From the NCBI GenBank assembly GCA_023920165.1, contig CP089275.1, positions 1,426,001 to 1,490,000 on the forward strand: a DNA stretch of 64,000 nt, in the 5' to 3' direction. Each line of letters begins with the position of its first letter. Within the stretch, counting starts at the first letter, position 1. This DNA is from Curvularia clavata. Lineage: Eukaryota. The translations under genes and the position numbers were made by a program. The notes under the pieces are model-generated. The model worked only from the letters and a program-made list of their open reading frames with translations, was not told where the DNA came from and did not search any database. This document shows positions 1,316-4,598 of the stretch, one piece after another.

Positions 1316-2949
1316 ATGGATCGACCACAAGTATCCATACCACCAGTACGTCACCCTGGCCATGTCGCGTGCTTCATCTGCTAACCGGGAACGCTAGGCT
1401 GCCAATGTCCTCGGGGTAGGTCACCTGCTCCATCAACCTTGAGTCATGATGCTAATTTACCTTTCCTCGAATAGACAATAGGAACTGGTGGGTAAACCGC
1501 TGTCGTCCTCCACACGCTATGCTAACTCGATCCTAGTGTATGCACATCATGCAATTGATTCTGTCAACTTTTTGCTAACATGCTCTTCCTGACTGTAGCT
1601 GTTGGTGTGTTCAGGTATGTGAAGCTTTTGAATCATTGAAACAGCAGCGACTAACAAAGGACAGATTATTCCACAGTAAGAGTCACAACAACCCTCAGTC
1701 TAATTGCCAACTAACATGGCCAAGAATATGGCATAACTGGCGCCGAAAGAGTACCGAAGGCCTGCCAGGATCCATGCTCATCCTTTGGTCAATATGTGAG
1801 ACTGTCGCCAGTCAATACACAAGCTTGAAACTGACCATAGCAGGCGGTGTCCCTTTTGGTGTATACGCTATTGTTCAGGTATGGTTGCCAACACGATCCT
1901 CGAGCCTCTTCTAATGCGACGCAGAACTTCAACTTTGCCTTGAAGTTTCAGCCTCAGGCATTTGCCGGTCTCACACTCATTTCCTGGGGTCAGACTCTTT
2001 ATTACCACAAGTCAGTCGAGTCCCTGTATTTCTTAATTGGCACTAACAAGCAGTAGTAAATGGCGAGCGTGGACCGCCACCGTTGCAACCATTGCCCTGG
2101 CTGCAAGCTTCGGACTCATGGAAATGATTCTCATCCTCACTCTGCGAGTAGGTCACGCAATAGCCTGGCCCCTTGTTCTTCTTAGCTCATCGTGTCCTTG
2201 TAGGGCCCATACAGCAGAGGTGTCGAATGGCCGATGATGCTCATGGCTATCTCGGCAACTGTTATCCAGATTCTTGGCCTGATCCCTCCCTACTTCGAAC
2301 TCGCAAAGCGCAATGGAAGAGTCATTGGAATTGGTACGGTGACAGCTAGTTGACCCTGGGGCGAATCATCGTTGCTAACCTACTTAGATTTCTGGTTTCT
2401 CACCATCGATTACATGGGCGCTTTCTTCTCCCTCATGGCCATCGGTATGTTCGTCGCCTTCTCCGACAAAGCATGGCTAATGAAGACGATAGTCGCACAG
2501 CAGTGGTTCGATGCTCTCGGTGCTAGCTTATACATCGTTTGGTATGTATCCTCGCTTGTGCTCTACCGTCACACAGAGCCCCCTTGCTAACACCTACTAG
2601 CATGTTGCTCGAAACTGGTATATTCGCCTCACAAGCCATCTGGATGTGGCGTGTTCGACACGTACGCGCCGAAGCCAAGAAGGCTGGAATGACCTACGAC
2701 GAATACATTGCAGAGAACCCAAGCAAAAAGCTATTTGCTAGCGAATCTTCCGAAACATTCGTCGATGTCGAAGCAGGCCACGATGAGAAGCGAACGGCGA
2801 GCACATGTACCGAGAAGTCGACTACAAGCCAGACAGAGCACAGTGTCATCACACCGGGTGATGCGATACCGACGCCGTCGGAGCCTTCTCCGGAAGCACT
2901 GCCCACTCCACCGCCTGCCGTGTTGAGGCCCAGCGGGCCTGGCCCATGA
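1316..2949 (+). CDS. PQ-loop repeat membrane protein (multi-exon, with several micro-exons)
   Basis: Manual splicing gives MDRPQVSIPP-AANVLG-TIGT-V-CWCVQ-IIPQ-IWHNWRRKSTEGLPGSMLILW (PQ motif). A second loop reads LIPPYFELAKRNGRVIG. Introns have GTRHGT-type donors and GCTAAC-type branch sites. Stop at 2947-2949. Confidence 0.85.
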
Positions 2950-4598
2950 TAATCACGACGACCCTTCTCTTCTTGAACAACATGTCGCACAATTCGCGGC
3001 AAATCTTTTAACGACCACGTTTTGTAATATCTTACTACTTCCCCAGTCAGGGAGCACAACATTCTACCAGCTCAATGAGGATATGAGCAGTCACCGCTGG
3101 TGTATATTACTTTATTTCGGTACTCATCAAGGCAAAAGCAATCGACATGAAACGTGTACGAATATCACAAATTAACGGAACTGGGTTGGGGGCGTTTGGT
3201 ATTGTTATCTATCTATGTACATATTATCTTTGGGCGAGGATTGGACAAGGAAAAGCAAGCTTCTCTGCAATGGAATAAACTGGTGCTGATGCACGACCAC
3301 GCAGTTGGCGAGATACATCCATCGAATAACATTCAGTCGGACCTTTTCGTAGTGCTGTGAAAGCCTCAACATACTTTAGTGCTCACTGTGCCAAGCTCCT
3401 TCAGTATGCTACACGATAGGATTCTAGTATGACATAGTCGCACAAGGTACACATGTACCTGTACATAATCGAGAACCACAAGCAATATTTTATTAGAAAA
3501 GCAGAGCGGGAAATAAGTAGCAACAAGAATCTTTTTTACTTCCTAACCCGATTCTACCCCAAGAAAAGAACCCTTTCTTTATAAGAGAGAAAAGAAAAAG
3601 ATGCATGAAGTACACGTGTACGTAGTACACAGCCTGAGAGTCCGGCCAGCCTTACTCGTGTTCCTTCTCTCAAAAAGACAAGAGGACTCTTCGTTTCCTA
3701 TCATTGTAGGTACTAAAAAAGTCCCTTTCCCTTGTGCATGTATGTTCTTTCTCCTGCTTGCCTCATCTAGAGACGGACAAGACTTGTTCACGGTCCGCGA
3801 TTGGTGCTTGTTCATGTGAAAAGCCGCAAAAATGGGAACAAGGAGAAGAAAGCAAGAACGGGAGAGAAGACAATGGTGGTAAACAGGATATGGAGAGGGG
3901 AGCATGGCTTTTTGGTTCCATTCTGGTTCTCATATTCTAGTGTGGATGGAGTAGATGTATGTGTGTAGTACAAGTATGGATAGAATACCTTGTAATAGTG
4001 AACAGTTGTGTGGTGAACAGGTGCGTAGTGAGCAGGTATGTAATGTTTCGAGCCGTAACACCTACTCAGCATCTGATCGAAAATCGGATTTACCCAAAAG
4101 ATTAATAAATGAATAGAAGAGAGAGTTAAAGATTAGAGAATCATGTAGTTGTTGCTGTCTTCGTACAAAATCAAAGATTATCACCTAGACAAAGGCACCT
4201 CTTTAGGACTTTTCTCAGGCCTCCAGTTCATAGAGCGTCAAGAAGGAGAGACTAGGCTTCAGTCCTGGGCCACTGGTACCCCTGTACACCGGCACAGTGG
4301 TAGTCGGTAATAACCTCCATAGTTTATTACTTTAACTCTAAACTTTAAGTAGCAAATTCTATTTCTAAGGAGTGGAACCTTATTCACACCACCTTGTTGT
4401 TATTCGTGAAAACTCACTACTCGACCCATCTTAATTATTTAGGTAATTACATTGGAGTATTATTATGATGATGCTATCTACGCAACGCTACCAAACACTT
4501 GAAAGTATGTAACAGGCCTGACCACCAAGATCCCGCAAAACAAATTGGTATATTTACTTTTAACAAAATCAAAAACTCCGTTACGCCCAAGCCCAGAT

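Follow-up and report, generated by a model that had tools for sequence, protein, structure and literature searches.

The window analysed here is a stretch of 64,000 nucleotides (nt) from Curvularia clavata (assembly GCA_023920165.1, contig CP089275.1, positions 1,426,001 to 1,490,000), and it contains a gene for a PQ-loop membrane protein on the forward strand at 1316-2949. When the exon chain is built and translated, 14 coding exons and 13 introns yield 318 codons, from an ATG at 1316 to a TGA at 2947-2949. The host DNA is fungal nuclear, with short introns and CTAAC-type branch sites. The 5′ end of the gene is highly fragmented: the exons there measure 30, 18, 13, 1, 16 and 11 nt, and the first 89 coding bases are interrupted by six introns. 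The smallest of these exons, the single T at position 1537, is the subject of this analysis and is very probably a genuine one-nucleotide exon.

The initial annotation, made from the sequence alone, had proposed this base together with its flanking introns (1488-1536 and 1538-1598), an exon at 1475-1487, and neighbouring exons of 18, 13, 16 and 11 nt. The sequence contains each of these exactly as described. It had further credited both introns with a donor, a branch site and an acceptor of their own, and all six signals were located. The motif GCTAAC begins 16 nt before the end of the upstream intron and 25 nt before the end of the downstream one, and the T itself stands in the context TAG-T-GTATGC at 1534-1543. 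The other 11 introns of the gene measure 46-59 nt, and the donor carries G at position +5 in 13/13 used introns. Translation also agrees with what had been proposed: with T1537 the frame is open and reads TIGT-V-CWCVQ-IIPQ, the valine being encoded by G+T+C, and without T1537 the frame shifts. Only two models keep the frame open, namely the inclusion of T1537 or the use of an alternative donor at 1492 (GTAAAC), which replaces the valine with two glycines (TIGTGGCWCVQ). If T1537 is an exon, two short and self-sufficient introns would split one codon into G, T and C. This codon, Val21, is predicted to lie in the first transmembrane helix, directly ahead of the first PQ motif.

The family assignment is carried by exon 6, which on its own matches the PQ-loop repeat of Pfam (PF04193) with 28.4 bits against a cut-off of 22; no Pfam match passed the cut-off when exon 8 (28 aa), exon 10 (43 aa) or the last exon was searched singly. 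A transcript-derived protein that is 88% identical to the window protein, P0063, matches PF04193 with 79 bits over residues 12-70. The sole relative with a solved structure is a weak one, the cystinosin homologue 7zk1 (E 0.0089).

RNA contigs across the site

The RNA evidence consists of assembled contigs from four public runs (X1, X2, X3 and X11), not of raw reads. X1, X2 and X3 come from three separate studies and are informative, while X11 spans only 2098-3015 and leaves the site uncovered. The contigs of X1-X3 lack all downstream introns, at GT..AG joints, which indicates that they derive from spliced RNA.

Spliced contigs of all three informative runs carry ACTG-T-CTGT across the site. 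In X1, a contig of 1425 nt (record 2) follows the genome over 1167-1346 with 2 mismatches, leaves it at 1346 and resumes at 1725, with an insert, reported by its length only, of 58 letters in between. A one-base exon predicts precisely this length, as the exons of 18, 13, 1, 16 and 11 nt add up to 59, less one G that is ambiguous between 1346 and 1398. The donor at 1492 predicts 61 letters, and skipping of the T predicts 57. Further, the loose ends that precede 1725 in two contigs of X2 and in X3 start with TGT and continue with exons 4 and 5. This TGT corresponds to T1486, G1487 and T1537, where the donor at 1492 would yield TGG. The X2 contigs have a synonymous difference in exon 5 (ATC for ATT), which implies a different strain or species having the same junction. 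X2 also holds a second contig set at 1922-2314 that is 90-95% identical to the window and stands beside near-identical contigs, so the run also contains expressed sequence from a related species, strain or paralogue.

A direct view of the two introns comes from a short contig of X3 (record 12; 105 nt, depth 4.7). It runs unbroken through 1536-1612, retaining the intron 1538-1598, and is preceded by 28 letters in which exon 2 is joined to exon 3. The contig is a partly spliced molecule from which intron 2 and the intron 1488-1536 have been removed while 1538-1598 is still present, and in it T1537 is directly contiguous with the GTATGC of the retained intron. The contig thus establishes 1488-1536 as a separate intron and identifies the T of the message as T1537. 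As the depth over 1444-1517 is zero in every run, the contig does not represent contaminating genomic DNA. Nor is a de Bruijn-graph chimera expected, since around the T the spliced and unspliced paths have no more than a couple of letters in common, far fewer than 30. The alternative junctions, with the T skipped or the donor at 1492 used, are absent among the contigs of the three informative runs; inclusion of T1537 may be constitutive, within what contigs, which drop rare variants, can tell.

A second organism yields the same result from DNA and RNA together. The spliced contig L002 matches the exons of the genomic contig L042 at 100%, and when all chains of introns with GT/GC..AG ends and lengths of 40-120 nt were tried exhaustively, a single one converted L042 into L002, with exons of 30, 18, 13, 1, 16 and 11 nt. 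The message of this second organism must then contain the same one-base exon. Coordinates of the gene and its 5′ features are collected in Table 1. Elsewhere in the transcript, in the 3′ untranslated region, the contigs of X1, X2 and X3 show an additional T after 3106; the cause is either a difference between strains or a single-base error in the window assembly.

Table 1. The PQ-loop protein gene and the features of its 5′ end (window coordinates).
Feature	Position	Strand	Evidence
PQ-loop protein gene	1316..2949	+	Exon chain translated; RNA contigs show introns from 1796 onward as GT..AG joints
Exon 1, 30 nt, begins with ATG	1316..1345	+	X1 contig aligned over 1167-1346, then departs from genome
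Intron 1, 52 nt, GTACGT..TAG	1346..1397	+	Missing in RNA contigs; loose end behind 1346 goes on into exon 2
Exon 2, 18 nt	1398..1415	+	Letters found in X3 loose ends
Intron 2, 59 nt, GTAGGT..TAG	1416..1474	+	Missing in X3 loose ends, exon 2 joined to exon 3
Exon 3, 13 nt; ends in G, codon position 1 of Val21	1475..1487	+	X3 loose ends terminate in GGAACTG
Upstream flanking intron, 49 nt, phase 1; donor GTGGGT, GCTAAC at 1521-1526, acceptor TAG	1488..1536	+	Spliced out in X3 record 12
One-nucleotide exon T, codon position 2 of Val21 (G-T-C)	1537..1537	+	In spliced RNA contigs of X1, X2 and X3
Downstream flanking intron, 61 nt, phase 2; donor GTATGC, GCTAAC at 1574-1579, acceptor TAG	1538..1598	+	Gone from mature contigs, retained in X3 record 12
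Exon 4, 16 nt; starts with C, codon position 3 of Val21, then CWCVQ	1599..1614	+	X2 and X3 loose ends
Intron 5, 50 nt, GTATGT..CAG	1615..1664	+	Missing in X2 and X3 loose ends
Exon 5, 11 nt, bears most IIPQ codons of the first PQ motif	1665..1675	+	X2 and X3 loose ends
Intron 6, 49 nt, GTAAGA..AAG	1676..1724	+	RNA contigs restart at 1725
Alternative in-frame donor GTAAAC	1492..1497	+	Frame kept; no usage seen in contigs of the three informative runs

Related loci and rival explanations

Metagenome contigs were scanned with an alignment of ten correct database proteins, which returned 79 related loci. The initial annotation had suggested a search for AG-N-GT in orthologues, and the arrangement intron-T-intron indeed recurs at the same codon positions in 26 of the 79. 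Neither flanking intron is present in 42 (long genomic contigs and a few spliced ones), none of the 79 has only one of the two, and the remaining 11, which are truncated or too divergent, failed to fit the pattern. Among the 26 carriers the upstream intron measures 43-61 nt and the downstream intron 47-93 nt, and a 13-nt exon equivalent to exon 3 is also found in the relatives examined. Donors and intron sequences vary freely, whereas AG-T-GT is invariant. The single base is T in 26/26, within a codon G-T-N (Val) or A-T-N (Ile). This constancy is explained by the membrane helix and not by splicing, because a T at the second position is common to all codons for hydrophobic residues. The helix would need a hydrophobic Val or Ile, which would keep a T at codon position 2 throughout.

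The loci that lack both introns serve as a ruler for the length of the protein at this site. With a wider pattern, exactly one codon, for Val or Ile, lies between GT[IL]GT and [CFL]WC in 42/42 uninterrupted loci; with a narrower pattern there is one residue in 31/31, namely V in 27 (GTN) and I in 4 (ATN). The family pattern invoked in the initial annotation, with one residue at the site, thereby holds in the relatives.

Some introns of relatives differ from those of the window. L042 (380-429) and L077 (near 2895) have GC-AG introns, with GCAAGT donors, at positions of GT-AG introns in the window; that of L042 is borne out by the spliced contig L002. In the Helotiales-like loci L058, L069 and L072 the intron before the TIGT exon stands one base earlier than intron 2 of the window, in phase 2 within the Gly codon rather than in phase 0 after it, and this offset may be a one-base intron shift.

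A single intron of 107 nt from the donor at 1492 to 1598, with the inner AG-T-GT a chance motif, had been named at the outset as the reading that would displace the one-base exon. It does keep the frame open, bare AG-N-GT is expected by chance about 0.4 times per 107 nt (a rough estimate that assumes equal base use), and public models of the relatives P0036, P0097, P0099 and P0113 contain Gly. The RNA contigs, however, were examined for it and read GGAACTG-T-CTGTTGG, as the initial annotation had predicted, not GGTGG-CTGT; the X1 insert has 58 and not 61 letters, and exon 4 is preceded by TGT, not TGG. Two residues occur at the site in 0/31 and 0/42 uninterrupted homologues, the GTAAAC has A in place of the +5 G of all the used donors, and its intron would have roughly double the length of the others (46-59 nt). 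A contig with 1488-1536 removed and 1538-1598 kept also exists. Taken together, these results make a single intron from this donor extremely improbable. An equally negligible chance is left to the extra T of the RNA being an assembly or sequencing artefact, or the product of editing, and not a spliced genomic base. This view gains from the evidence being de Bruijn-graph contigs and not reads, but the same junction is found in three runs of three studies, including the sequence variant of X2, the intermediate contig sets the T directly before the genomic GTATGC, and the independent pair of L042 and L002 agrees.

Two further explanations accept the base and concern the manner of its splicing. 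In spliceosomal twin introns (stwintrons), one intron is inserted within a splice signal of another. The outer intron becomes functional only after the inner has been removed, and nothing between the two stays in the mRNA. The two flanking introns of the PQ-loop gene do lie side by side, and one intermediate has lost just one of the two. Yet the donor, branch site and acceptor of both are complete in the genome, and a base is left between them in the mRNA; a donor rebuilt from G1487 and T1537 would join 12 and 16 nt out of frame, which differs from the junction seen. With intact signals in the genome and a base retained in the RNA, the pair does not belong among stwintrons, and this explanation is very unlikely. 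The alternative of a regulated switch, in which the T is sometimes skipped (1487 to 1599) and a frameshifted, decay-prone message tunes expression of the transporter, is somewhat less remote but still improbable. It could draw on the shift of frame that skipping causes, on the retention of the intron 1538-1598 in one contig, and on the forms with and without the base that 1-nt microexon genes of plants have in some species, as passages of PMC8831610 describe. Against this, the skipped junction appears in no contig of the three informative runs, and the layout is conserved along with the protein frame, for which ordinary coding constraint suffices.

Certain features of the evidence do weigh against a genuine one-base exon at T1537. 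Besides the chance expectation for AG-N-GT, the run type of X1-X3 is only guessed as RNA, the insert of the X1 contig is known by its length, and a minor isoform through the donor at 1492 or through skipping of the T may exist, since contigs drop rare variants. Despite the commonness of AG-N-GT, the exon at T1537 stands above chance because separate branch sites, intron sizes, the +5 G, RNA and conservation all agree.

Public models of the gene

The initial annotation describes one-nucleotide exons as very rare and missed by gene predictors, and public models bear out the second point. A protein search with exon 10 (43 residues) matched 150 proteins, 120 of them listed, and among these 120 the correct Val or Ile occurs in 0 of the 44 named genome models of Pleosporales type, which we take to belong to Pleosporales or allied Dothideomycetes from their genus names. 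Among the same 120 matches, 14 read GT[IL]GT-(V/I)-[CF]WC: five transcript-derived sequences resembling Pleosporales, one other transcript-derived sequence and eight models from lichen fungi. The transcript-derived P0021, P0063, P0093, P0095 and P0096 read GT[IL]GT-V-CWC.

The best match, P0001 (352 aa), comes from Curvularia clavata itself and, two intron stretches apart, agrees with the window protein at every residue beginning with exon 6. The model begins at an ATG within the intron 1538-1598 and misses both the first transmembrane helix and the first PQ motif; it also translates the introns 1796-1843 and 2445-2492 as protein. Other faulty models have no N-terminus, pass over exons 3-4 without a frameshift (P0060, P0080), or put G, R, GI or GKLFC in place of the residue. 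Gly or Arg variants at the site, found in P0036, P0099, P0113, P0101, P0097 and P0057, are taken to be annotation work-arounds. In a search of Sordariomycetes, models from Diaporthales and Xylariales are mostly correct and the Neurospora crassa model P0215 reads the site correctly, while many Sordariales models are broken there, as would fit the presence of the microexons in Sordariales. Functional or comparative work on this transporter family in these fungi would consequently start from wrong proteins.

Splicing and history of the intron pair

The two flanking introns can be removed separately, as a molecule exists from which the upstream one is gone while the downstream one is kept. The upstream acceptor overlaps with the downstream donor (AG-T-GT), so that two spliceosomes could hardly occupy both at once. 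This overlap suggests that the introns are removed successively and by intron definition, probably with the upstream intron first, as transcribed. The process would resemble recursive splicing at a ratchet point, save that a coding base stays behind. At ratchet points, also described as zero-nucleotide exons, an acceptor adjoins a donor and a long span is removed stepwise, with nothing retained. The PQ-loop gene shares the acceptor next to a donor and the successive steps, but it retains a coding base, and its introns are short and independent. The site is not a recursive splice site or zero-nucleotide exon, as one retained base separates AG and GT; the likeness is one of working mode only. 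Introns that stand one base apart provide an extreme test of intron-defined splicing, and the occurrence of a partly spliced molecule in public data makes the order of removal measurable.

One-base exons have already been published in plants and fungi, and the PQ-loop case adds an example and breadth to them, not a new principle. The comparisons that follow draw on passages of the reports cited. A close parallel in kind is CYP621A of Fusarium (Nelson and Syed 2026, PMC12940212), another gene of a filamentous ascomycete. There, too, one base flanked by AG and GT forms the middle of a conserved codon and is required by the frame; public RNA reads support it, an intronless homologue serves as the length standard, and gene models miss it (PMC12940212). 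The two differ in that CYP621A is a P450 with AG-G-GT, whereas the window has a PQ-loop gene with AG-T-GT. Further, the passages on CYP621A report it in one genus (PMC12940212), while the PQ-loop layout occurs in loci near three classes and comes with a partly spliced intermediate. Among basidiomycetes, a long-read re-annotation of Coprinopsis cinerea lists 13 one-base exons in 13 genes (PMC12230235), and these are, like the present one, fungal one-base exons supported by transcript data.

The 1-nt microexons of the plant genes APC11 and VPS55 (Guo and Liu 2015, PMC4674806; Yu et al. 2022, PMC8831610) share with T1537 the two flanking introns, deep conservation, absence from annotation and intronless relatives that point to joint loss. 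In VPS55, the missed exon also costs the annotated protein a transmembrane helix (PMC8831610), as it does in the PQ-loop gene. The plant introns are longer, the annotated intron of Arabidopsis APC11 that contains the base being 422 nt (PMC4674806) compared with 49 and 61 nt here. The plant cases were tested by mutagenesis and reverse transcription PCR (PMC4674806, PMC8831610), and the one-base exon of Arabidopsis APC11 has mutational proof (PMC4674806), whereas the PQ-loop case is known from public RNA contigs. No full-text match among those listed in a literature search, which did not extend to the Coprinopsis supplements, links a PQ-loop gene to a one-base exon.

As to the history of the pair, the closest named proteins of the carriers include those of Alternaria, Pyrenophora, Parastagonospora and other Pleosporales, of the Sordariales Echria (73%), Staphylotrichum (60%) and Podospora (88% in one exon), and of the Helotiales Hyaloscypha (62-68%) and Stipitochalara (63-72%). 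Judged by these closest proteins, the carriers appear to span Dothideomycetes, Sordariomycetes and Leotiomycetes. Most relatives that carry the one-base exon have the same six-intron cluster. A comparison of 40 distinct sequences shows 20 with both T-flanking introns and 20 with neither. Neighbouring pairs do disagree at times, in 2 sequences at the following pair, 5 at the pair beyond it and 1 at the preceding pair, so an individual intron of the cluster can disappear. With an exon of one base there would be no homology by which recombination with a cDNA copy could remove just one neighbour, and both introns would be lost together. The intronless copies of plant APC11 are likewise explained by joint loss of both introns in the passages of PMC8831610 considered.

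On the simplest reading, the six-intron cluster at the 5′ end would be an old feature that predates the split of Dothideomycetes, Sordariomycetes and Leotiomycetes and has been lost wholesale in many lineages. The fuller proposal is that the unit is ancestral to the three classes, has been kept or lost whole, is removed in an obligatory upstream-first order, and is the most widely conserved one-base exon of fungi so far; to us its truth seems evenly poised. Several points limit these readings. The class placement of the distant loci is by 52-73% identity to the nearest named proteins and not by a tree, and these loci may include paralogues as well as orthologues. Further, the whole cluster is absent in 19 of the 20 sequences without the T-flanking pair, which leaves only modest support for a special linkage of the pair, so that the finding that the two introns are never separated is suggestive and not strong. 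The splicing order, finally, is read from one low-depth contig (4.7) of one run, and no reverse intermediate was found among the pieces listed. Presence in loci related to three fungal classes, with clean absence elsewhere, makes the pair a tractable case for the gain and loss of adjacent introns. Were the fuller proposal true, the gene would be a natural substrate for studying the lower limit of intron definition and for tests of intron-loss models.

Upstream of the gene, the window has short tandem repeats between 270 and 470, made up of GTGGGT-type units at about 281-310, GGCGAG units at about 345-362 and GGCT units at about 453-470. These precede the first base that the RNA contigs have for the gene (1167).

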